DNA of 20,000 nt, from the IMG/VR virus record IMGVR_UViG_3300035670_000155; one strand, written 5' to 3'. Shown here in pieces: positions 878 through 10,260 of the stretch. Below the pieces are notes generated by a model. That model was given only the letters and a program-made list of their open reading frames with translations, did not search any database and had not been told where the DNA came from. Position numbers and translations under genes: made by a program. The stretch's first letter is position 1; every line of letters begins with the position of its first letter. Origin of the DNA: an uncultured virus (IMG/VR IMGVR_UViG_3300035670_000155). Taxonomy: Duplodnaviria > Heunggongvirae > Uroviricota > Caudoviricetes.

Positions 878-2326
878 ATGAAGCTCAAGGAACAGGCGAA
901 GTGTGAAAAGATTGCTCGCACCGGTCGTGTGCAAAGCTGGCTTGACGAAGCAGACGGAAGACTGCCCGTAAGCTGCACGGTCTTCGTCGTGGATGATTCA
1001 ATGGAGGGGGAAAATGGCATTGAAGCATCGTGGCGTTTTGTTTCTCATGGCCTGCGCAATGGTGCAGGCGTAGCAGTGCATTTGTCTGAGCTGCGTGGCA
1101 AAGGCGATGAAAATGGAAAAGGCCTTGTTGCAAGTGGTCCCATTAGCTTCGGCAAAATTTATTCCACGCTCAATGAAATTCTTCGCAGAGGCGGACGCTA
1201 TAAAAATGGGGCCGTAGTGCTTCATCTTGACTATTCGCATCCTGACATTCTTGATTTCATCAAAGCTTCTCGTCAAGAGCTTCCATGGGTGAAGAGGTGT
1301 GTGAATGTGGATGAACAGTTTATTGAGAACTCTTCTCAAGAGCTTATTGATGAGCTGCTAAAAGGCATTGCTTCTGGCGACATCTGGCTTAACAAAATTC
1401 GGTACGATCAAGAAGGAAAGCGCATCCGTGCCAATGTCTGCCTTGAAGTTTATCTTCCTCACCGTGGCACTTGCCTTCTTCAGCACGTCAACATGGGTGC
1501 TTGCGACATCGACGAAGTAGAAGCGGCTTTTGTCGAGGGCATGGAGCAATTGTGCGAGCTTCATGGCGGCACGGGCGTTGGCGATACGGGCGAATATCTC
1601 CCTCCTTCTGTTGACAAGCAAGTGGGCCTTGGCATGCTTGGTCTTGCCAACTTCCTTTCCCTCCATGGCATTTCTTACGAAGACTTCGGGAAGGCCCTGG
1701 AAGCCCTGAACGATGATGACCCCCATCCATGGTGCCACTATTGGGGCGAGAAGCCTGCTGGCAGGGCTGCAGCAGCCATTCGTAATGGCATTGAGGCAGC
1801 GGCAAAGATTGCTCGTGAAGCTGGCATGCATCGTGCTTTCTGCATTGCTCCCACAGCATCTTGCTCTTATCGCTATATCGATAAGAAAGGCTTTACAACT
1901 GCCCCTGAAATTGCCCCTCCCATTGGACGGCTTGTTGATAGGGACTCTGGCACTTTTGGCGTGGAAAGTTTTGACTATGGGGAAGTGGAAATTGCGGAAC
2001 AAGTTGGCTGGAGCACTTACGTTCTTGTCGTGAATGAACTCGTGCGTTTGTATCAAGCCACTGGCCTTTTTCACGGTTACTCCATGAACACATGGGGAGA
2101 TCTGGTTACTTACGATCGAGAGTTCCTTCAAGATTGGCTAGACTCTCCTCAGACAAGCATGTACTATTCCTTGCAAGTCATGTCTGACATGCAAAGAAAG
2201 GACGATGCTTACGCCGCTCTTGATGACGACTTCAAGAGCATATTTGGACTCGAAGATAGCGAGCCTTCTGGAGAGGTTGTTACTTGCAGTTTGGATGCAG
2301 GCTTCTGCTCTAGCTGCGCTGAATAA
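878..2326 (+). CDS. nrdA: Ribonucleotide reductase alpha subunit, compact cyanophage-type class I, no ATP cone
   Basis: SCTVF (catalytic Cys), ANVCLEV (N-x-C-x-E), TCLLQHVN, IAPTASCS, YYSLQ tyrosine pair and C-terminal CSSCAE. 482 aa, followed by a ferritin-like beta subunit. Confidence 0.95.
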   Translation: MKLKEQAKCEKIARTGRVQSWLDEADGRLPVSCTVFVVDDSMEGENGIEASWRFVSHGLRNGAGVAVHLSELRGKGDENGKGLVASGPISFGKIYSTLNEILRRGGRYKNGAVVLHLDYSHPDILDFIKASRQELPWVKRCVNVDEQFIENSSQELIDELLKGIASGDIWLNKIRYDQEGKRIRANVCLEVYLPHRGTCLLQHVNMGACDIDEVEAAFVEGMEQLCELHGGTGVGDTGEYLPPSVDKQVGLGMLGLANFLSLHGISYEDFGKALEALNDDDPHPWCHYWGEKPAGRAAAAIRNGIEAAAKIAREAGMHRAFCIAPTASCSYRYIDKKGFTTAPEIAPPIGRLVDRDSGTFGVESFDYGEVEIAEQVGWSTYVLVVNELVRLYQATGLFHGYSMNTWGDLVTYDREFLQDWLDSPQTSMYYSLQVMSDMQRKDDAYAALDDDFKSIFGLEDSEPSGEVVTCSLDAGFCSSCAE

Positions 2327-2348
2327 TTCTCTCTCCATAGTTCTTTAC

Positions 2349-2373
2349 AAAGGGGGAGTTTCTTCCCCTTTTT
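2349..2373 (+). terminator. Hairpin with A-tract and U-tract between nrdA and nrdB
   Basis: AAAGGGGGAG-TTT-CTTCCCCTTTTT. Confidence 0.55.
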
Positions 2374-2399
2374 CATTCTTTTCCATCGCTTTCCTAAAT

Positions 2400-3134
2400 A
2401 TGATCGCCTCCCAGCAGAGTCCCTATTTGAATGTCCTTGCCAAAAAGCGTGCATGGACGCCTGTGCAAGTGGCAAAAGGACAGGTGACAGAGGGCGCTGA
2501 AAGCACTTTGCTTAAGGCTTTGGCATTGCGCCACCTTGAAATTCCCGTAAAGGAGCTTCTCGAGGAGGGTATGAAACGCGAACTACCCTCCACCCCTGGC
2601 CTTATTGAGACTCTTCGCTCTAACCAGGACGATGAGGACCGCCACTTGGAGGCTTTGAACTACGTGGCCGACGCCCACGGTACTGACGCAAAGTCAGAGC
2701 GTGAAGTGATGAGCATTTTGAAAGCTTGGAACGAGCACCCTGCTCATCCCATTCTCAAGGCAGGCATTATGGAACGCTCTGTTTTTTTCGTGGCGCTTCC
2801 GTTTTTCAGACAGACGGGTGACGTGGGCATGCGCACTGTCTCGCAAGATATTTCGAGAGATGAAAGGGTTCATACCGTGGTCAATGCCATGGTGAGCAAG
2901 GAACTAGGGGAAAAGGAAAGCCAAAGTCTTGACAAACTTCGCGCCGCCACTGTTGCTTGGCTTTTTGATGATCTCGGCGCCTCGTCCAATCAATGGCTGA
3001 ACAAAGATTTTTGGCTGCGTCAATCTCGCTCTTTATTTTGGACTGGCAAGGCTCCCGAAATGGCCGCAACTCGCAGCAGCCGATGCCCTGCTTTTTTCGA
3101 AAGCCCCAACACTTCACTGCCTATGTATTCTTAG
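2400..3134 (+). CDS. nrdB: Ribonucleotide reductase beta subunit (short ferritin-like), likely start ATG 2400
   Basis: Di-metal ligands in RHLE, DEDRH, IMERS and RDERVH. Adjacent to nrdA. The ORF-track extension to 2205 overlaps nrdA and the hairpin. Confidence 0.9.
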   Translation: MIASQQSPYLNVLAKKRAWTPVQVAKGQVTEGAESTLLKALALRHLEIPVKELLEEGMKRELPSTPGLIETLRSNQDDEDRHLEALNYVADAHGTDAKSEREVMSILKAWNEHPAHPILKAGIMERSVFFVALPFFRQTGDVGMRTVSQDISRDERVHTVVNAMVSKELGEKESQSLDKLRAATVAWLFDDLGASSNQWLNKDFWLRQSRSLFWTGKAPEMAATRSSRCPAFFESPNTSLPMYS

Positions 3135-3163
3135 AGACCACTTGCAATCTTCCAGCTTATCCA

Positions 3164-3199
3164 TGCTAAACTGGCGGGGTTCTTGTTCTCCGCCTTTTT
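3164..3199 (+). promoter_or_regulatory. Extended -10 promoter abutting a terminator-like hairpin
   Basis: TG-C-TAAACT (3164-3172), then GGCGGGG-N8-CTCCGCC-TTTTT (3173-3199), then ATG 3201. Confidence 0.55.
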
Positions 3200-3200
3200 C

Positions 3201-3893
3201 ATGGAAGAAATTTGGAAACCCATTCCTGGTTACGAAACCCATTACGCAGCTTCAAGTCTTGGACGTATCAAAAGTGTTCAACGCGTTGTCAAGGATACTA
3301 AGAACGGCAAAGAGCGCACTCGCGTGTTCAAAGAGAAAATCCTTCGGTTTAATATCAGCAAGAGCCATGGGCGAATGTCTGTGATGCTGTCTAAAAATGG
3401 AGAACTGAAAAGAATTCTTGTGGATCGCCTTGTGTGCCTTGCTTTCCATGGACTTCCTCCAGAAGGGAAGGAAAACGTTTTGCACTACGACGACGTTCAC
3501 ACCAACAATGTGCCAGAAAACCTTAGATGGGGCAGTCTCAAGGAAAATGCCGCCGACATGAAACGTAATCTTGGGTATTGGCCCGCGTACATTGACGGCA
3601 GATCCAAGCGTCCACGCAAAAAAATTGGCGACCCACTGCTCAACGAAGCCCAGGTCAGGGTGTTGTTGCGACTTCCCAAAGACATGCGGCATTTGCGTGG
3701 CTTGCGCACTCAATTGGCTGAAGCATGGGGCGTAAAGCCTTCTACTATCAGCAGTGCTAAATACGGGGGCAAAGGATGGGATGAATTGACCACGGAGCCG
3801 CTTTGGGACATGGCGGAGCGCCTCAATGGCGAACTCCTTGGGCGTGACAAGCCCAAGCGCAACACTAGCCTGCCTTCTTACGGCCGCGCCTAG
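3201..3893 (+). CDS. Free-standing NUMOD4-HNH homing endonuclease
   Basis: EIWKPIPGYE..Y..SSLGRIKS (NUMOD4); RLVCLAF...VLHYDD...NN..ENLRWG..KEN (HNH); C-terminal HTH-like LAEAWGVKPSTIS. Confidence 0.9.
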   Translation: MEEIWKPIPGYETHYAASSLGRIKSVQRVVKDTKNGKERTRVFKEKILRFNISKSHGRMSVMLSKNGELKRILVDRLVCLAFHGLPPEGKENVLHYDDVHTNNVPENLRWGSLKENAADMKRNLGYWPAYIDGRSKRPRKKIGDPLLNEAQVRVLLRLPKDMRHLRGLRTQLAEAWGVKPSTISSAKYGGKGWDELTTEPLWDMAERLNGELLGRDKPKRNTSLPSYGRA

Positions 3894-3947: not shown

Positions 3948-4016
3948 TGCTCTTTAGTGTTGGATACACGTTGGGCCGATAGCCCAGAATGCCGGGTTCG
4001 ATTCCTGGAGGAGCCC
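3948..4016 (+). tRNA. Non-canonical tRNA-Ile(GAT)-like gene
   Basis: Acceptor GCTCTT/AGGAGC, T8A9, D arm GTGT-TGGAT-ACAC, anticodon arm TTGGG-CCGATAG-CCCAG, T arm CCGGG-TTCGATT-CCTGG. Deviations: T1:C72 mismatch, C33, 5-nt D loop, no CCA. Extended -10 TG-C-TATAGT at 3894-3902 and a U-tract downstream. Confidence 0.7.
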
Positions 4017-4261: not shown

Positions 4262-4822
4262 ATGAGCGCCTTTGTCACATCAGACTTGCATCTTGGCCAT
4301 TCCAAGATCCTGGAATTTGACGCGCCAGATGGATCCCGAATGCGCCCATTTTCTTCCATCGAAGAGATGCACGAACAAATTCAAGAACGTTGGAATAAAA
4401 AAGTTCATCAGAAGGATAATGTGTATGTGCTTGGCGATGTAGCGTTTTCCAAGACTGCCCTAAGGTTTTTGGAGGGCTTCAATGGGAGGAAAGTGCTAAT
4501 TGCTGGCAATCATGATCGTCTTCCCGCCAAGCTCTATCTTCAATATTTTGACGATATTCGCGGAGCTTATTTCCACCATGGGGATAGCACCATGCTTGGA
4601 GGTTTAGTCTTCACGCACATTCCCATCCACCCCAAAGGACTCGTCGGACACTATCGAGGCAATGTTCACGGCCATCTCCATTGCCATCTTGTACACACAG
4701 AAGATGGGCAAGTGGATAGGCGCTATTTCAACGCATGCTTGGAGAGAAATAACTTTGAGCCAGTAGCATTAGAAGATATTAAGGCTTATTTCAAAGCCAA
4801 TGGACGAACGTCGGACGTTTAA
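4262..4822 (+). CDS. Calcineurin-like metallophosphoesterase
   Basis: SDLHLGH, LGDVA, GNHD, THIP and HGHLH motifs. Confidence 0.92.
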   Translation: MSAFVTSDLHLGHSKILEFDAPDGSRMRPFSSIEEMHEQIQERWNKKVHQKDNVYVLGDVAFSKTALRFLEGFNGRKVLIAGNHDRLPAKLYLQYFDDIRGAYFHHGDSTMLGGLVFTHIPIHPKGLVGHYRGNVHGHLHCHLVHTEDGQVDRRYFNACLERNNFEPVALEDIKAYFKANGRTSDV

Positions 4823-5000
4823 CACGCCAGTTCGCTCGCGCTGGAACGCGCCCATTCATAATTGCCTGAAAGCCATTGACAACCACATGGAGCTTTACTT
4901 CCTCCATCGTGATCCTTGGCACCTTGAAAAAGCAGCAGCGCTTAGGGCATATTTGCGCGAATTAAAAACGTACATTCACAAGCAAGAGGAAAATAGTTAA
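4800..5000 (+). CDS. Conserved cyanophage-type hypothetical protein
   Basis: NTPVR..WNAPIHN.LKAIDNH...YF...D.WHLEKA..LR.Y pattern recalled from cyanophage hypothetical proteins. Overlaps the upstream stop. Confidence 0.75.
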   Translation: MDERRTFNTPVRSRWNAPIHNCLKAIDNHMELYFLHRDPWHLEKAAALRAYLRELKTYIHKQEENS

Positions 5001-5027
5001 CAATTTCTTAATCCATAAAGTAAGCGG

Positions 5028-5061
5028 TGTAACAATTGCTACAAAGCTTGCGAGATAGCTT
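5028..5061 (+). promoter_or_regulatory. NtcA box in repressing position over the promoter of the DUF4278-like gene
   Basis: TGTA-ACAATTGC-TACA (5028-5043) fits the extended consensus. The -10 TAGCTT (5056-5061) lies only 13 nt after TAC. Confidence 0.65.
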
Positions 5062-5083
5062 GAATGAAAGCGCATGGCCTTCC

Positions 5084-5242
5084 ATGACTCGCCTTGTCTA
5101 TCGTGGTCTTCCTTATTTCATGGAAGAGGAGCACGAAGCCTTTTCTGCATGGTGGCAACTTCTTCATCTGCCTTCTCGCTGGCTTGTCTATCGCGGACAA
5201 AAATACCGCCCCTGTCAAGTTGACAAAGGCGGCTGGATGTAG
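5084..5242 (+). CDS. DUF4278-like small protein with two LVYRGxxY motifs (52 aa)
   Basis: MTRLVYRGLPY...WLVYRGQKYRPC. LxYRGxxY is the hallmark of cyanobacterial DUF4278. Start ATG 5084. Confidence 0.75.
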   Translation: MTRLVYRGLPYFMEEEHEAFSAWWQLLHLPSRWLVYRGQKYRPCQVDKGGWM

Positions 5243-5245
5243 CCT

Positions 5246-5347
5246 TCAGGCCACACAAGGGCGGTAGCCGTAGACTGAAGCCAACTGCGCCTGATGAAGC
5301 CTTGCGGCCTTCAGGAGCTGCAGCTTCACAAGCATGAGCTTGTTCAC
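5246..5347 (-). CDS. 33-aa riboswitch-controlled peptide (not in ORF track)
   Basis: GGAGG-N7-GTG; MNKLMLVKLQLLKAARLHQAQLASVYGYRPCVA*. Resembles cyanophage peptides of the MNxLxxIKxQxxKAxxLHxAQ type. Confidence 0.75.
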   Translation of the reverse strand: MNKLMLVKLQLLKAARLHQAQLASVYGYRPCVA

Positions 5348-5366
5348 GACCGTTCCTCCATGGTCC

Positions 5367-5416
5367 CCATCCCCCGTTTCCTGGATGGCTTGCATGCACC
5401 CTTTGCAGGGCAAACG
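5367..5416 (-). ncRNA. Glutamine-II (Downstream-peptide)-like riboswitch
   Basis: Minus strand CGTTT-G-CCCT-GCAA-AGGG-TGCA-TGCAAG-CCATCC-AG-G-AAACG-GG-GGATGG gives P1 CGTTT/AAACG, P2 CCCT/AGGG and pseudoknot CCATCC/GGATGG. It begins just after the extended -10 TG-A-TACACT (5424-5432) and lies directly upstream of a peptide ORF. Confidence 0.7.
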
Positions 5417-5437
5417 TATCTTCAGTGTATCAAACCA

Positions 5438-5650
5438 TGCCTCACGCTGGAATCAAACCAGCTTTCATCATCAGAAGAGGCGAGAGGCAGAATGTTTCCG
5501 CATCAGGAAACAAACAGGGTGCGGCCCTGACATTCTGCCAAGTGTCCCAAGTGCTTCAACTCACTTAAGACGGTGAACGGAATCCACGATGGTGCCAGCA
5601 TTGACGAGGATACTGGCAAGCCGTTGGCCAACGGGCTCCTGCAGGAAGCT
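5438..5650 (-). ncRNA. Candidate structured non-coding RNA
   Basis: Stretch with no convincing ORF, carrying serial hairpins and two three-way junctions. G-U pairs favour the minus strand. Extended -10 TG-T-TAAGCT at 5656-5664. Confidence 0.5.
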
Positions 5651-5658
5651 TTGCAAGC

Positions 5659-5787
5659 TTAACAGAGAAAGCTCCAGTAGACGGCGGCTCCCTCTAGGAA
5701 CAAACGCTTATTGGTGAAGCGAGCTTCGCGAAACGGCACTCTAATTTCATGCCTTTGCCCATGGAGGCTATAGCACAAACAAACCAT
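5659..5787 (-). CDS. Hypothetical protein (42 aa, not in ORF track)
   Basis: MVCLCYSLHGQRHEIRVPFREARFTNKRLFLEGAAVYWSFLC*; the ATG lies 3 nt after the stop of the upstream gene. Confidence 0.6.
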   Translation of the reverse strand: MVCLCYSLHGQRHEIRVPFREARFTNKRLFLEGAAVYWSFLC

Positions 5788-5790
5788 TTC

Positions 5791-6006
5791 TCAAACGTCG
5801 TATTCTTTACACCCTTGATGGCCAAAGCGATTTTCGCAGGCATCGTTCCAATGCTCGCGATAATCGTCCATAAAATGCTCAAACGCAGCCTTTGCAAGGC
5901 GCAGCTCTTCGCTCATAGGGCCGAAGCTCTTGCCAGCTTCTTCTACGGCTTCTGCAGCCTTCATGGCCCAGGCAAGGGCTTCTTCTGCAGTGAAGGACGA
6001 GGCCAT
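5791..6006 (-). CDS. Divergent CP12-like small acidic protein (71 aa)
   Basis: C-terminus C-x8-C-KEYDV matches the CP12 C-x8-C-xxYD/E tail. Size and helical acidic N-terminus are similar. No AWDxVEE motif. -10 TAGACT at 6029-6034. Confidence 0.5.
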   Translation of the reverse strand: MASSFTAEEALAWAMKAAEAVEEAGKSFGPMSEELRLAKAAFEHFMDDYREHWNDACENRFGHQGCKEYDV

Positions 6007-6031
6007 GGCAAGGAAGGGGAATGTGTTTAGT

Positions 6032-6208
6032 CTATCCTTCCAAGTTTTTCATTGCTTTAAGCACTCGCTCGGCTTCATGCAATTTTGGCAAGAGCGTTGG
6101 TTTGTAAGCGTGTTCGGCGGCTAGAAGCTGAAGCGCCGTTTGCCTGTCCGCTTCTAGCAGGGCCAGGAGAAAAGATAGTTCCTTGCTAGAAAGTTCAACG
6201 CCAATCAT
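6032..6208 (-). CDS. Hypothetical protein (58 aa, not in ORF track)
   Basis: MIGVELSSKELSFLLALLEADRQTALQLLAAEHAYKPTLLPKLHEAERVLKAMKNLEG*; fills the gap downstream of terL. -10 TAGAAT at 6245-6250. Confidence 0.65.
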   Translation of the reverse strand: MIGVELSSKELSFLLALLEADRQTALQLLAAEHAYKPTLLPKLHEAERVLKAMKNLEG

Positions 6209-6257
6209 TTTTCAGAAAAAGTGAAATTTCAACATTTGCTGAAAATTCTAAGCACAA

Positions 6258-7640
6258 TCATCGGACAAGACTATTCAGCCAGTCAATGTCATTCTCTTTT
6301 GAAGCTTCAAGAATAGCTGCTGCAAGTGCAAACGCATAGTCGTCCACTCCCACTTCTTTTCCTCCAGTGACCGCCCACTGACCACTTGCTCTGTAAATAA
6401 CGCTCAAATTTTTAAGCTGAGTAATTGCTTTTTGATGAGGATAAAGTTCAATTAGGCCAGCATTAAAAAGCTCTTTCATCTTGCTGAAAGCTTTCATTTT
6501 TGTGCTGACCGACCAAGCTAGCTCTGCAATAGGGAAATCCTTGGAAAGATTTTGGATGATAAAGCTGCTATTGAACTGGTCGAGAACAATGCTCTGAAAC
6601 TCATAAATGCGATGGTGCTCCTTGATCCACTCTTCTACTTTTGCCATATTCACTTCTTTTTTGCCACCAATTTCAAAGTCGGGCTCGAAGGCGTGAAACT
6701 TGTCCACCACTAGCCTTTCGCCCTCATAGTGAACAATACAAGCGGTGTAATCATCTCGTCCCACGCCACCTCGGGCGGGGTCCAAAGAAAGTACATAGGT
6801 GCCAGTAAATTCTTTTTCAGGGAACAATACTCCTCGCTTTTTATTTATGGCAGCTTCAACAATTTCAGTGGCCAATAATGCTGAATTGTTCTTGGCAAAT
6901 TGAGCCCCGTACTCCACCCAAAATTTATCAGGATCACGCTTTAGCTCGGCATCAAGGAATGCACATCCCCATGGCAAATTGACATTCACCTCCCAAGTTG
7001 GGAGATTTACTGCCTGCATAAAGGGAAACTCTCCAGATTTTGCTTCGCAATAGTGCTGATAAAACAGGCCATCAGTGAGCCATGGAGAAGACAGCTCAAG
7101 AATGCGACCATGCTGGCCAAACTGAGCGATGGACGGTGACAGGGCGTCATAAATGGCTTTTGCGCCACGGTTAGCGTCGCCTTCAATAGCGAAGGAAAGC
7201 TCGTCCATAATGAGCATGACCACGGCTTTACCACGGGAGGCCCTGGCCGATGCAGGAATAGCCTGGAACACGCAATTGTTGCTTGTTTCAATTTCAGTGG
7301 CAGTTTCTCTCGTGATTTCATCCACGAGAGGGCTGTCCATGAGCAACTGGCGAATGTTGTTCAAGGCAAGTTTTGCCTGGCTTTGATCGTTGGCGATGGT
7401 AAGGATGTACCATTTTTCAGTTTTGCGCACGCGCCTTCTGTATTGATCCTCCAAGACAAAGCAGGCGTAAAGAGCCGCAATGGCCGCCATAAGCGTTTTG
7501 CCGCAGCGTCGCCCAAGCGCCCATACGGCGTGAGTTTTATTGCCACCGAAGTAGCCGTCGAGAATGCGCTTTTGCTCAGGCCAAAGCTCCAGTTTTAATA
7601 CGTGCTTGGCAAAATCGCTGCACTTGAGAGAGCTGCTCAT
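6258..7640 (-). CDS. terL: Terminase large subunit
   Basis: LWPEQ (Q motif), GRRCGKT (Walker A), MLIMDE (Walker B), LSSP (motif III), and nuclease acidic residues in LSLDPA, VLDQF and DDYAFA. Confidence 0.95.
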   Translation of the reverse strand: MSSSLKCSDFAKHVLKLELWPEQKRILDGYFGGNKTHAVWALGRRCGKTLMAAIAALYACFVLEDQYRRRVRKTEKWYILTIANDQSQAKLALNNIRQLLMDSPLVDEITRETATEIETSNNCVFQAIPASARASRGKAVVMLIMDELSFAIEGDANRGAKAIYDALSPSIAQFGQHGRILELSSPWLTDGLFYQHYCEAKSGEFPFMQAVNLPTWEVNVNLPWGCAFLDAELKRDPDKFWVEYGAQFAKNNSALLATEIVEAAINKKRGVLFPEKEFTGTYVLSLDPARGGVGRDDYTACIVHYEGERLVVDKFHAFEPDFEIGGKKEVNMAKVEEWIKEHHRIYEFQSIVLDQFNSSFIIQNLSKDFPIAELAWSVSTKMKAFSKMKELFNAGLIELYPHQKAITQLKNLSVIYRASGQWAVTGGKEVGVDDYAFALAAAILEASKENDIDWLNSLVR

Positions 7641-8187: not shown

Positions 8188-10260
8188 ATGTCGGAAGAAG
8201 CAGTTGACCTAGGACATGCCACTGCAGACGGACTGCGTAATGACGGCCTTGCCAACGCCCTCACTGGCATGGGCATTTCCGGCAGAGATAAAAGTTTGGC
8301 CACGCAAGCGCAGCCCATCATTTTTCTTGCGCAAGAAGAACTAGAAGCTCTTTATGGCGAATGGTTGCCCCGTCGCATTGTTGATATTTATGCAGAGCAA
8401 GCCACAAGAAGGGGCTTCAAGGTGTTGTTTGGCGGAGAAGGAGCGGCGGCAGAAGAAGTGGTGGGTGTCGAGCAGGTGATTGAAGATTTGTATATTCTTG
8501 AAAACTTCATGCTCGCCTCTAAGAATTCCAGGCTCTATGGAGGAGCCGTAATTCTTCTTTACATTGACGACGGCAGGCCGGCGGATCAACCAGTTGACAA
8601 AAGCCGCATCTATTCCGTGGAAGGCATGGAAGTGCTGGATCGCTGGCAAATTGCACCAGTGATCAACGAAGAGAATTTGTACGACTATTCCAAGGCAACT
8701 TATTATCAAATTATTTCTGGCGATCTTATTCGGCAGCCGCAACTCACTTACGTCCATAAAGACAGGATTTTGCGTTTTGATGGCGAGTGGCTTCCCTACC
8801 GCATTAGGCAAAGAAATTATGGGTGGGGAATGAGCAGTTTACAAACTGTCTACGAAAGTTTTAAGCACTATTGGACCGGCCTAAACAGTGCTGCCACTTT
8901 ATTGAGCGAGTTTGATATTTTTGTTCACAAGATTCGCGGGCTTGCTCAAATGCTTGCAGCGGGAAAAGAAAAAGACGTGAGAGATCGCCTTGTCCTCAAC
9001 GACATGAGCAAGAGCGTTTATCGCGGCTATGCAATTGACGCAGAGAAAGAGGAGCTTGCTTTTATCAGCCGGAACTTTGGTGGAGTTGGTGAAATTCTGG
9101 AAAAAATGCGTGTTGATATTATTGGTGCTTCAAAAATTCCTCACACAGTGCTGTTTGGGGAAAGTCCTAGCGGCCTTGGTTCCACTGGGCGAAGCGAAGA
9201 GCGAGATTTTGCCAAGACACTGGCTGATTACCAACAGTCCACTTTCCATCGCCCCCTTAAAAAGCTGATGACTTACATCATGCTTAGCAAGACTGGGCCG
9301 ACGAATGGGCGAGTGCCGGAATCGTGGCGCATCAAGTTTAACGATTTGTTCGAATTGAATGAAAGAGAGAAGGCCGACGTGAGGGCTCGTGTGGCGGCCG
9401 TGGACGGGCGTTACATACAGCTCGGGGTACTGAGCCCCAAAGAGGTGGCTGACGCCCGCTATGGAGGCTCTGAGTGGTCGATGGAGCTTACTCTCGATCC
9501 GTCTGTGGTGCGCGAGCTTCCTACTCAGGGAGGGGGTGGTTCCACTCAGAAGGGGAGTGGATTGGCCGTGCCTCCTGGCGGACGCGATCCCATGAACGAA
9601 GAGAACGGCACCTTGCCAATGGATGGAAGCAGGGAAGTAGAGGACGCCGCAGGATTGTTCTTGCCTCGTGACCTCGAAAAAGTGCGGGGCGATGTGCAGT
9701 TCAAAGACAAAGACCTGCATCAGCAAGCAATTGCCGCCGCCAAGTCAAAATTCAAGGTGTGGCCCAGTGCTTATGCCAGCGCCTACATGGTGCAGAAGTA
9801 CAAAGAACTCTATAAGAAAAAGCACGGTGGCGGCAGTGGCTTCAAGGGGGACGATGGCGACGTGAATCATGACGATCTTGATAAATGGTTTAAGGAAGAA
9901 TGGGTGAGGATTGGCGCTAACGGAGAAATTCTTGGTGAATGTGGAGGGCGCGAAGAGAAAGAAGGAAAGCCAAAGTGCTTGCCCAAGGCAAAAGCTCAGG
10001 CCATGAGCAAAGAGGAGCGACAGACAATTGTGGCCCGCAAGCGCAAGTCCGACCCCAATCCAGAACGAAAGGGGCCGGCGAAAATGGTCAGCAGCAAAGT
10101 GGATGCGATTGAGCCCGTGCAAGTGGAAGGGCTAATGCTTGGAGGCATTGACGAGGCTGCTTTTATTAGCGAGGCGGATGTTGACGCAGCACTGCAGCAA
10201 TGGAAGGAAGAGGCTCCCGAAAAATTCAAGGACCTACTAGAAGCTGATGATGCTGAATAA
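8188..10260 (+). CDS. Portal protein (DUF1073-type) with C-terminal extension
   Basis: LANALTGMG..RDK, LYG.WL.RRIVD, SRLYGGAVI, HKDRILRF, WGMS.LQ, IPHTVLFGESPSGL.STG. About 250 aa follow the portal core. Confidence 0.92.
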   Translation: MSEEAVDLGHATADGLRNDGLANALTGMGISGRDKSLATQAQPIIFLAQEELEALYGEWLPRRIVDIYAEQATRRGFKVLFGGEGAAAEEVVGVEQVIEDLYILENFMLASKNSRLYGGAVILLYIDDGRPADQPVDKSRIYSVEGMEVLDRWQIAPVINEENLYDYSKATYYQIISGDLIRQPQLTYVHKDRILRFDGEWLPYRIRQRNYGWGMSSLQTVYESFKHYWTGLNSAATLLSEFDIFVHKIRGLAQMLAAGKEKDVRDRLVLNDMSKSVYRGYAIDAEKEELAFISRNFGGVGEILEKMRVDIIGASKIPHTVLFGESPSGLGSTGRSEERDFAKTLADYQQSTFHRPLKKLMTYIMLSKTGPTNGRVPESWRIKFNDLFELNEREKADVRARVAAVDGRYIQLGVLSPKEVADARYGGSEWSMELTLDPSVVRELPTQGGGGSTQKGSGLAVPPGGRDPMNEENGTLPMDGSREVEDAAGLFLPRDLEKVRGDVQFKDKDLHQQAIAAAKSKFKVWPSAYASAYMVQKYKELYKKKHGGGSGFKGDDGDVNHDDLDKWFKEEWVRIGANGEILGECGGREEKEGKPKCLPKAKAQAMSKEERQTIVARKRKSDPNPERKGPAKMVSSKVDAIEPVQVEGLMLGGIDEAAFISEADVDAALQQWKEEAPEKFKDLLEADDAE

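Follow-up and report, generated by a model that had tools for sequence, protein, structure and literature searches.

The window studied here is a 20,000-nucleotide (nt) stretch of DNA from an uncultured virus of the class Caudoviricetes (IMG/VR record IMGVR_UViG_3300035670_000155). On the evidence of sequence comparison its minus strand encodes, at 5484–5649, a structured phage small RNA of ∼166 nt which adjoins a tRNA or tRNA remnant and which matches no catalogued family. Four hairpins, H1 to H4, and a three-way junction make up its architecture, giving seven helices. An earlier interpretation made from the letters of the window alone (the sequence-only reading) had proposed a structured non-coding RNA on this strand. 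This is upheld by the homologues, in which the element is conserved and covaries, belongs to no Rfam family and contains no conserved open reading frame (ORF). The same reading described one RNA of ∼215 nt with two three-way junctions and this has to be revised, as the RNA proper is ∼166 nt long and occurs without the second of these structures, a tRNA-derived minihelix, in 34 of 44 distinct variants.

Homologues and covariation

Homologues were collected from viral contigs by a TerL search, which returned 284 stretches of which 80 loci were kept, and nhmmer with positions 5720–5420 of the window as the query found matches in 47 of 81 loci. Pattern scans supplied extra viral contigs, 39 stretches with the H3 hairpin pattern and 44 with the junction pattern. 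Taken from H1 through the whole junction, the collection contains 44 distinct elements of 149–230 nt. Positions 5200–5900 of the window are 100% identical in one viral record and blastn against 50,697 phage records gave no matches. The nearest cultured relative is siphovirus S-CBS4 of Synechococcus sp. CB0101, whose TerL shows 62% identity across 99% of its length.

A covariance model, R1, was constructed from ten seeds and 38 hand-placed pairs. It matches the window over model positions 1–172 with 121.3 bits and an E-value of 9.1e-34, the E-values of this model being rough, and a search of 100 sources with it returned 67 matches, every one of them on the same strand as terL. Three viral genomes of 95–100% completeness carry one copy of the RNA apiece, and no copy was detectable with R1 in one complete, more distant genome. 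A weak match elsewhere in one complete genome (19.8 bits) had mismatched helices and no nearby tRNA and was taken as chance.

Standard pairs were found in 98.2% of 1682 cells (47 distinct rows) compared with 84.0% in shuffles, and 29 of the 38 pairs were changed on both sides compared with 16.8 in shuffles. The covariation score of 0.434, against 0.185 in shuffles, was reached by none of 500 shuffles, and sliding the 3′ partners by 1–3 columns reduced it to at most 0.09. Helices were also pulled from the raw sequences around the conserved loop anchors, without the model, and this gave seven helices with the same compensatory changes.

Folding of the single sequence was far less informative. 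Positions 5438–5664 on the minus strand gave −81 kcal/mol with a z-score of −2.17, and five of 200 shuffles folded as well, while the plus strand gave a z-score of −2.61, so that the minus strand was no better than the plus. Folding relative to shuffled sequence, proposed as a check by the sequence-only reading, therefore showed a weak excess over chance and did not favour the strand. A single sequence proves neither structure nor strand here, and the structure is accepted as more than chance because of the comparative evidence. The strand is indicated by G-U pairs, which occupy 85 of the 1682 cells; on the opposite strand the paired fraction would fall from 98.2% to 93.1%. The sequence-only reading had argued for the minus strand from G-U pairs in three stems, and three such pairs do occur in the modelled helices of the window. 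The neighbouring tRNA of the relatives lies on the same strand as the RNA, in agreement with the G-U evidence.

The earlier remark that there is no convincing ORF is borne out by the relatives. At least one of the six frames is open over at least 80% of the length in 41 of the 44 distinct elements, the other three having none, and the open frame varies in strand and frame. In relatives the conserved block containing H3 is translated in one or another of the three frames, as SSSMLA, SILVNAG or QYPRQCW. Divided by three, the element lengths leave every possible remainder (12, 18 and 14 elements), and substitutions track base pairing, not codon position.

A search of positions 5438–5664 with Rfam 15 (4227 models) found no family at the gathering threshold. 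A permissive search of 4800–6300, with E-values up to 10, gave chance-level rows, the only one inside the element being snoRNA sR20 with 14.3 bits against the 44 required. The neighbouring Glutamine-II riboswitch is the sole gathering-level match in the window, and the lack of a known family anticipated by the sequence-only reading therefore holds. The RNA was not found described in the literature on noncoding RNAs of cyanophages and other phages, the glutamine riboswitch, S-CBS4 and the tRNAs of cyanosiphoviruses. In the portion consulted of a catalogue of 10,006 viral structured RNA candidates (PMC10690425), six sample identifiers gave no match, so that the RNA may be listed there unnamed, and the sections seen of the S-LBS1 paper (PMC6157547) mention no such element.

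Hairpins H1 to H4

The segments picked out by the sequence-only reading are present on the minus strand: GCUUC/GGAGC at 5649–5645/5639–5635, CCGUU-GGCC-AACGG at 5634–5621 and the strands UGCCAGUAU/AUGCUGGCA. The first forms H1 (GCUUC-CUGCA-GGAGC, 5635–5649), which is probably the 5′ end of the RNA and is paired in 100% of cells across the 47 distinct rows. It occurs as seven sequence variants, two of them perfect palindromes, and its loop changes from UGCA to GGCC. H2 (CCGUU-GGCC-AACGG, 5621–5634) is likewise paired in 100% of cells and four of its five pairs are changed on both sides, the stem variants including CCGUU/AACGG, CCAGU/ACUGG, CCAUC/GAUGG and CCACUAG/CUAGUGG. Each of its nine variants is a perfect palindrome through the loop, GGCC or GCGC, and this holds for 47 of 47 rows. 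The change from GGCC to GCGC on the unchanged stem CCGUU..AACGG is a double substitution requiring two simultaneous changes. The palindromic loop bases would be explained either by pairing in some form, as an intermolecular duplex or as DNA, or by hairpin-templated mutation. The restriction-type sites CTGCAG and TGGCCA fall on H1 and H2, and AAGCTT is close by.

H3 (UGCCAGUAU-CCUCGUCA-AUGCUGGCA, 5593–5618 on the minus strand, with paired strands 5618–5610/5601–5593) has a nearly invariant loop. All six modelled pairs are changed on both sides, and pairing is kept in 97.8% of cells, with CCAGUAU/AUGCUGG, CCAACAU/AUGUUGG, GAAGGUAU/AUGCCUUC and GUCAGUAU/AUGCUGAC among the variants. It is followed by an unpaired-looking motif, GGAUUCCGU (5577–5585, minus strand), which is nearly invariant in alignments A1–A4 and whose local pairings vary from one lineage to the next. 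Pairing of the H3 loop with GGGAU as a pseudoknot is not supported, the mean longest complementary run being 4.3 in 42 sequences compared with 3.8 for shuffled and 3.9 for reversed linkers. Pairing of the H3 and H4 loops through UCAA/UUGA was dropped, as changes in the loops are uncompensated.

H4 (5544–5571, minus strand) consists of GUCUUAAGUG (5571–5562), AGUUGAAG and CACUUGGGAC (5553–5544). Its conserved loop, (R)UUGAAG, is carried on about 15 different stems among the relatives, and four of five modelled pairs are changed on both sides. A loop of the UGAAG/GGAAG type is also found in S-CBS4 and in two distant relatives, loci L055 and L058. The stem TTCAC/GTGAG (5577–5573/5564–5560) of the sequence-only reading competes with H4 and gives way to it, since it is H4 that covaries in relatives, and the tandem CACTTGG remarked upon there is merely the 3′ strand of H4 plus linker.

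The three-way junction

The junction occupies 5486–5539 of the minus strand and comprises a closing stem, P1, and two hairpins, PA and PB. It had been predicted correctly, with GGCAGAAUG(U)/(A)CAUUCUGCC at 5539–5530/5495–5486 enclosing both hairpins. P1 (5539–5531/5494–5486) has seven of seven pairs changed on both sides, whereas PA (CAGGG-CCGCA-CCCUG, 5529–5515) and PB (UUUCC-UGAUGC-GGAAA, 5510–5495) have four of five each. Variants of P1 include GGCAGAAUG/CAUUCUGCC, GACAGAAC/GUUCUGUC, GUAGAG/CUCUAC, GCAGGG/CCCUGC and GCAAGG/CCUUGC. Conservation lies in the loops. The sequence-only reading saw a possible kissing or switch pairing of CCGCA with UGCGG; CCGCA does not vary in any of the 47 distinct rows, and substitutions at the U of UGCG have no compensating partner. 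The strands of the junction itself are short (0–2, 4–5 and 0–3 nt) and not conserved, reading UUGAU, UUUGU or UUAAU in the second position and AAA, UAA or nothing in the third.

Two other structures were examined here. MAFFT with RNAalifold on 34 sequences, unrefined, paired the H1 loop region with the 3′ strand of P1; this was rejected because that pairing is broken in eight of the 34 sequences while the local P1 is compensated. A hammerhead ribozyme was also rejected, as the core CUGANGA, GAAA and the UH site are not in the junction strands and there is no Rfam match. The CUGAUGA present in the window (5474–5468) is in the linker of the minihelix and is not conserved.

Promoter motif

The sequence TGTTAAGCT (TG-n-TAAGCT; 5656–5664, minus strand) had been noted as preceding the element and proved to be strongly conserved. 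TG-n-TAnnnT is the signature of an extended −10 promoter. All 38 distinct upstream sequences carry it at a fixed distance, 6 nt ahead of the leading G of H1, and they span at least five different contexts, non-coding spacers included. The TG stands one base upstream of the TAnnnT hexamer, as in sigma-70 extended −10 promoters, in which the hexamer lies 5–9 nt before the start. In the window the TAA of the motif (5661–5659) doubles as the stop codon of an upstream ORF of 42 amino acids (aa). The motif is kept whether it overlaps that stop, follows another ORF or lies in a non-coding spacer (L010–L014, L070). It thus behaves like a conserved extended −10 promoter, from which transcription would start at about G5649.

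The tRNA-derived minihelix and the riboswitch unit

Immediately after the junction, the sequence-only reading placed a second three-way junction closed by GCCTC/GAGGC and holding a T-arm-like hairpin. These segments are present, but they belong to a separate minihelix at 5438–5481 (minus strand) with acceptor strands GCCUC/GAGGC (5481–5477/5443–5439), a 14-nt linker, a T arm GCUGG-UUUGAUU-CCAGC (5462–5446) and a discriminator A5438. The 7-nt T loop is of the UUCRANN type. The minihelix has neither D arm nor anticodon arm and forms no cloverleaf, and ARAGORN found no tRNA at 5438–5481, its sole tRNA in the window being tRNA-Ile at 3949–4016. A third hairpin proposed there, TTC-TGATGAT-GAA, is absent in one of four minihelix lineages (L108) and is discarded. 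Neither the window nor any of 41 loci scanned gave a transfer-messenger RNA (tmRNA) with ARAGORN, and the acceptor stem is closed within 44 nt.

The relatives indicate where the minihelix comes from. Downstream of the 44 distinct elements there is a full tRNA-Leu(UAA) in 14, starting 3–6 nt past the junction, a minihelix of 40–44 nt in 10, the window among them, and neither in 20, which are followed by nothing but a convergent gene. By its sequence and position the minihelix is a tRNA reduced to its acceptor stem and T arm, at the place of the tRNA-Leu(UAA) of the relatives. In nine distinct minihelices the acceptor (5/5) and the T stem (5/5) are paired throughout. The acceptor GCCUC/GAGGC changes to GUCUC/GAGAC or GCCCC/GGGGC, and the T stem GCUGG/CCAGC to GCCGG/CCGGC, GCAGG/CCUGC or GCUGA/UCAGC. 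Given that all nine are fully paired with compensatory changes, the minihelix is maintained by selection though unable to decode.

Further downstream on the minus strand is a Glutamine-II riboswitch aptamer (5366–5419; Rfam RF01704, 34.1 bits, gathering threshold 33). It is followed by a 33-aa ORF (5246–5347) with a GTG start at 5347 and GGAGG 5 nt upstream, which matches phrog_545 (E 6.2e-7, function unknown). The gathering-level score and this short ORF with its GGAGG and GTG place the aptamer in the Glutamine-II class, and on the sequence the ORF is taken to be under its control. A riboswitch-controlled small ORF is found downstream in 11 other variants as well. The unit ends in an intrinsic terminator recognised from sequence (5205–5233, minus strand), a 13-pair stem followed by ATTTTTG, and a similar hairpin and T-run also occur after the tRNA in L039 and L041.

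S-CBS4 and distant relatives

In S-CBS4 (NC_016766, locus L165) the junction is retained at 5656–5706, with loops GCCGCAC and CUAUCGCG, together with an H4-like hairpin and without H1–H3. It lies 5 nt before a tRNA-Thr(UGU) at 5712–5783, which is found by both Rfam (tRNA, 64.8 bits) and ARAGORN. The constant feature is thus a tRNA-shaped element and not tRNA-Leu specifically, because S-CBS4 carries tRNA-Thr(UGU) at this place. A Glutamine-II riboswitch follows at 5798–5854 (44.9 bits) and then a 39-aa ORF (gp007), the riboswitch being unannotated in the part of the RefSeq record viewed. Junction and tRNA-Thr fall inside a 500-nt gap, where the feature table of the record lists coding sequences only.

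A shorter relative of the RNA precedes tRNA-Leu(UAA) at 5690–5860 of both L055 and L058, whose TerL is about 66% identical. It has a TATGCT hexamer, H1 as GCUUUCGCGAAGC, a palindromic H2, ACGCUGCGCAGCGU or ACGUUGCGCAACGU, with the GCGC loop and a compensatory change, and an H4-like loop AUUGAAGCC. This type has no three-way junction and is not picked up by model R1. As L055 and L058 are without the junction and S-CBS4 is without H1–H3, the RNA is modular and fast-evolving.

Interpretation and alternatives

The reading we consider probable, with some reserve, is that of a stand-alone phage small RNA with its own promoter, released by processing at the tRNA or minihelix and acting in trans. The host-type extended −10 promoter (5664–5656) would start transcription at about G5649 and the product would be the ∼166-nt RNA with H1–H4 and the junction with its two invariant loops. 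The tRNA or minihelix would be retained as a processing signal. An acceptor/T-arm minihelix is the classical minimal substrate sufficient for bacterial RNase P, and it is because of this that a role as cutting signal is suggested. A cut by RNase P at the 5′ side of the minihelix would set the 3′ end of the small RNA, and the 3′ tRNA-processing enzyme would free the downstream mRNA with the Glutamine-II riboswitch. Once released as a stable RNA, it would most likely act in trans, with its invariant unpaired motifs as the contacts for a protein or a second RNA, namely the H3 loop CCUCGUCA, GGAUUCCGU, the H4 loop UUGAAG and the junction loops CCGCA and UGCG.

Several observations weigh against this proposal. 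H1 shows one-sided changes alone (U-G to U-A, C-G to U-G) and none that is double-sided, and the alignment behind the pair counts was fitted to the structure of the model and so favours that structure. A generic −35/−10 sigma-70 scan of 5100–5900 found no promoter. None of the 20 listed sequencing runs containing the stretch is on record as RNA; assembly over the stretch from four runs gave DNA contigs only, and one possible RNA run yielded nothing. The promoter is for these reasons deduced from its conservation, and the start, ends and stability of the RNA are predictions from sequence. Sites in the window complementary to the invariant loops are scattered 7–9-mers at chance level, and no partner protein or target was found. 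In the 20 of 44 variants with no tRNA-like element, formation of the 3′ end must differ, which weakens the case for tRNA-type processing as an essential step.

It seems unlikely that the RNA is instead a cis-acting 5′ leader of a transcript of tRNA or riboswitch and peptide, serving to protect the 5′ end, to time the folding or processing of the tRNA, or to modulate read-through. A tRNA, or an element shaped like one, begins 3–6 nt after it in 24 of 44 variants and in S-CBS4, as would suit a leader, a 5′-terminal hairpin such as H1 is a common stabiliser, and tandem hairpins after the start resemble the put elements of phage HK022 in position. However, the other 20 variants have only a convergent gene downstream, the RNA is more conserved than what follows it (tRNA-Leu, tRNA-Thr, minihelix or nothing), and what is conserved in it are the loops, with none of the fixed junction residues of a ligand-binding riboswitch. 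Action in trans is favoured over a cis leader on account of the RNA's own promoter motif, the 20 variants without a downstream gene, the loop-centred conservation and the single copy per genome. A small protein-coding gene, or read-through of the stop codon of the 42-aa ORF, can be given almost no credence. The frame in the window does remain open for 52 codons past the TAA in continuation of the 42-aa ORF, and in 41 of 44 elements some frame is open for 80% or more of the sequence, but that frame shifts in strand and register among relatives, lengths fall in all classes modulo 3, three of the 44 elements have no such frame and the substitutions follow pairing and not codon position.

The palindromes raise two further explanations. 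In one, which we regard as distinctly unlikely, the RNA self-associates into a dimer or ring through H1 and H2, as a small counterpart of ROOL and GOLLD or as a packaging-linked RNA like that of phi29. The palindromic loops speak for it, all nine H2 variants (47/47) being palindromic through the loop, with the GGCC to GCGC double change and the H1 change from UGCA to GGCC; H2 of L055 and L058 is palindromic with GCGC as well, and the gene lies ∼600 nt downstream of terL. Four-base loops are, however, too short for classical kissing, correction of quasi-palindromes by hairpin-templated mutation could keep palindromes without selection, and the Rfam models for pRNA, ROOL and GOLLD have no match. 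As for packaging, the TerL is an ordinary one, which matches terminase models in PHROG and, at a score under the Pfam cut-off, an RNaseH-like nuclease domain of terminases, and phages other than the phi29 group are not known to depend on a packaging RNA. The precedent of RNA-only multimers formed by ROOL and GOLLD, as given in the part seen of bioRxiv 10.1101/2024.12.08.627333, also supports self-association. In the other explanation, which is highly improbable, H1 and H2 act as DNA, as sites for dimeric DNA-binding proteins in an operator, packaging or replication site. They are (near-)perfect inverted repeats without spacer, a 31-nt stretch is identical in L078 despite divergence elsewhere, and the assembly contigs of other samples break inside the shared stretch. 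Nevertheless, H2 varies at four of five stem positions while remaining paired, as is typical of RNA stems rather than of a DNA recognition sequence, the commonest H1 needs a U-G wobble that would be a mismatch in DNA, and H3, H4 and the junction would be left unexplained. A processed, trans-acting small RNA is therefore the explanation that we prefer.

Genome context

The RNA gene lies ∼600 nt downstream of terL. The genes of the window include TerL (6258–7640, minus strand), a portal protein (8188–10260), a head protease, a major head protein, a ribonucleotide reductase (RNR) and an HNH endonuclease. Between terL and the RNA, the minus strand contains three small ORFs of 42 aa (5659–5787), 71 aa (5791–6006) and 58 aa (6032–6208), whose peptides are conserved in relatives and have no Pfam or PHROG match. 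The 42-aa peptide is basic and ends in ...EGAAVYWSFLC, and the 71-aa peptide ends in ...CKEYDV. In S-CBS4 and many relatives the former is kept while its codons change synonymously; by reading of the aligned rows, it is missing upstream of the RNA in 16 of the 44 distinct elements.

A scan for H1–H2 over one genome per prokaryotic species gave five matches on contigs of at most ∼13 kb from unrelated taxa, namely four metagenome-assembled genomes and one Dolichospermum assembly, three of the five with the full RNA. We read these as phage contigs and not as host genes, so that they provide no clue to the host. Contigs from three other metagenome runs start or stop inside 5624–5653 of the window (∼30 nt), which fits a sequence common word for word to otherwise diverged phage strains.

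The RNR region (878–3893, plus strand) looks unusual. A 482-aa ORF matches the Pfam large-subunit barrel over residues 31–132 only and has a second PHROG match over residues 175–451, and it overlaps the start of the beta-subunit ORF (2205–3134). An HNH/NUMOD4 endonuclease gene follows at 3183–3893. The 68-nt tRNA-Ile(GAU) at 3949–4016 (plus strand) has a tRNA-Ile or tRNA-Met at the corresponding place in relatives.

Significance and comparison with known systems

Cyanophages shape picocyanobacterial populations, and almost no small RNAs encoded by them are known. The RNA described here is a well-delimited candidate, with a promoter motif, seven covariation-supported helices, invariant loops and one copy per genome, and study at the bench is feasible since S-CBS4, which grows on Synechococcus CB0101, has the junction, the tRNA and the riboswitch. 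The shrunken and still compensating tRNA offers a natural test case for phage tRNA-like punctuation between a small RNA and a riboswitch mRNA. The always-palindromic hairpins raise a testable question of RNA self-association.

In outline the junction resembles the tuning fork of purine riboswitches, with a closing stem and two side-by-side hairpins whose complementary loops, CGCA and UGCG, might make contact. It differs in that conservation is in the loops and not in a ligand pocket, and no Rfam riboswitch model matches it. The Rfam model of phi29 pRNA does not match the element either.

In its proposed mode of working the RNA comes closest to the stable RNAs of the T4 tRNA cluster and to phage RNAs beside tRNAs such as GOLLD and ROOL, and the minihelix to tRNA-like processing signals such as mascRNA. 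Species 1 and species 2 RNAs of phage T4 are ∼120–140 nt long, are co-transcribed with the tRNA cluster and released by the tRNA machinery, and have no known function. They are likewise phage-encoded structured non-coding RNAs beside tRNA, the comparison being one of description, with no likeness of sequence or structure claimed. T4 is an enterobacterial myovirus, whereas the cyanophage element is one RNA, preceded by a promoter motif of its own and standing beside one tRNA or remnant.

GOLLD and ROOL are RNAs of phages or prophages that often adjoin tRNA genes. Like them, the present RNA is phage-borne, ornate, supported by covariation, adjacent to tRNA and of unknown function. They differ in being 500–800 nt long compared with 149–230 nt here, and neither matches the element in Rfam with E-values up to 10. 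Both are RNA-only multimers according to the part seen of bioRxiv 10.1101/2024.12.08.627333, and multimerisation is in our case a suspicion from the palindromic loops alone. Were self-assembly true, this would be a miniature ROOL/GOLLD-like RNA from the neighbourhood of the packaging genes, freed by a tRNA-derived minihelix.

The proposed arrangement also resembles MALAT1/mascRNA, the tRNA-miRNA units of MHV68 and mitochondrial tRNA punctuation, in which tRNA-shaped elements set RNA ends via RNase P and RNase Z. In each case a tRNA-shaped element comes directly after a functional RNA or between two of them, and in the present locus a minihelix is kept by compensatory changes although the decoding parts have been lost. 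Those systems are eukaryotic, viral-eukaryotic or organellar, whereas the element here derives from a bona fide phage tRNA-Leu and its cleavage is predicted.

A similar order of elements is reported in marine phages. In the portion of PMC9004378 that was seen, Melnitz, Mosig and a Prochlorococcus phage are reported to have a two-piece tmRNA called by ARAGORN whose 3′ part is a glutamine riboswitch. The tRNA-like element followed by a glutamine riboswitch in the window suggests that these annotations, of Melnitz and two other aquatic phages, merit re-examination. As far as that portion describes them, they share with the present locus a tRNA-like acceptor/T-arm element followed by a glutamine riboswitch; here, however, ARAGORN calls no tmRNA, the acceptor is closed locally, no tag frame is seen and the riboswitch is of the Glutamine-II type. 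By this analogy, the tRNA-like element and glutamine riboswitch of our window and of Melnitz may represent a related arrangement.

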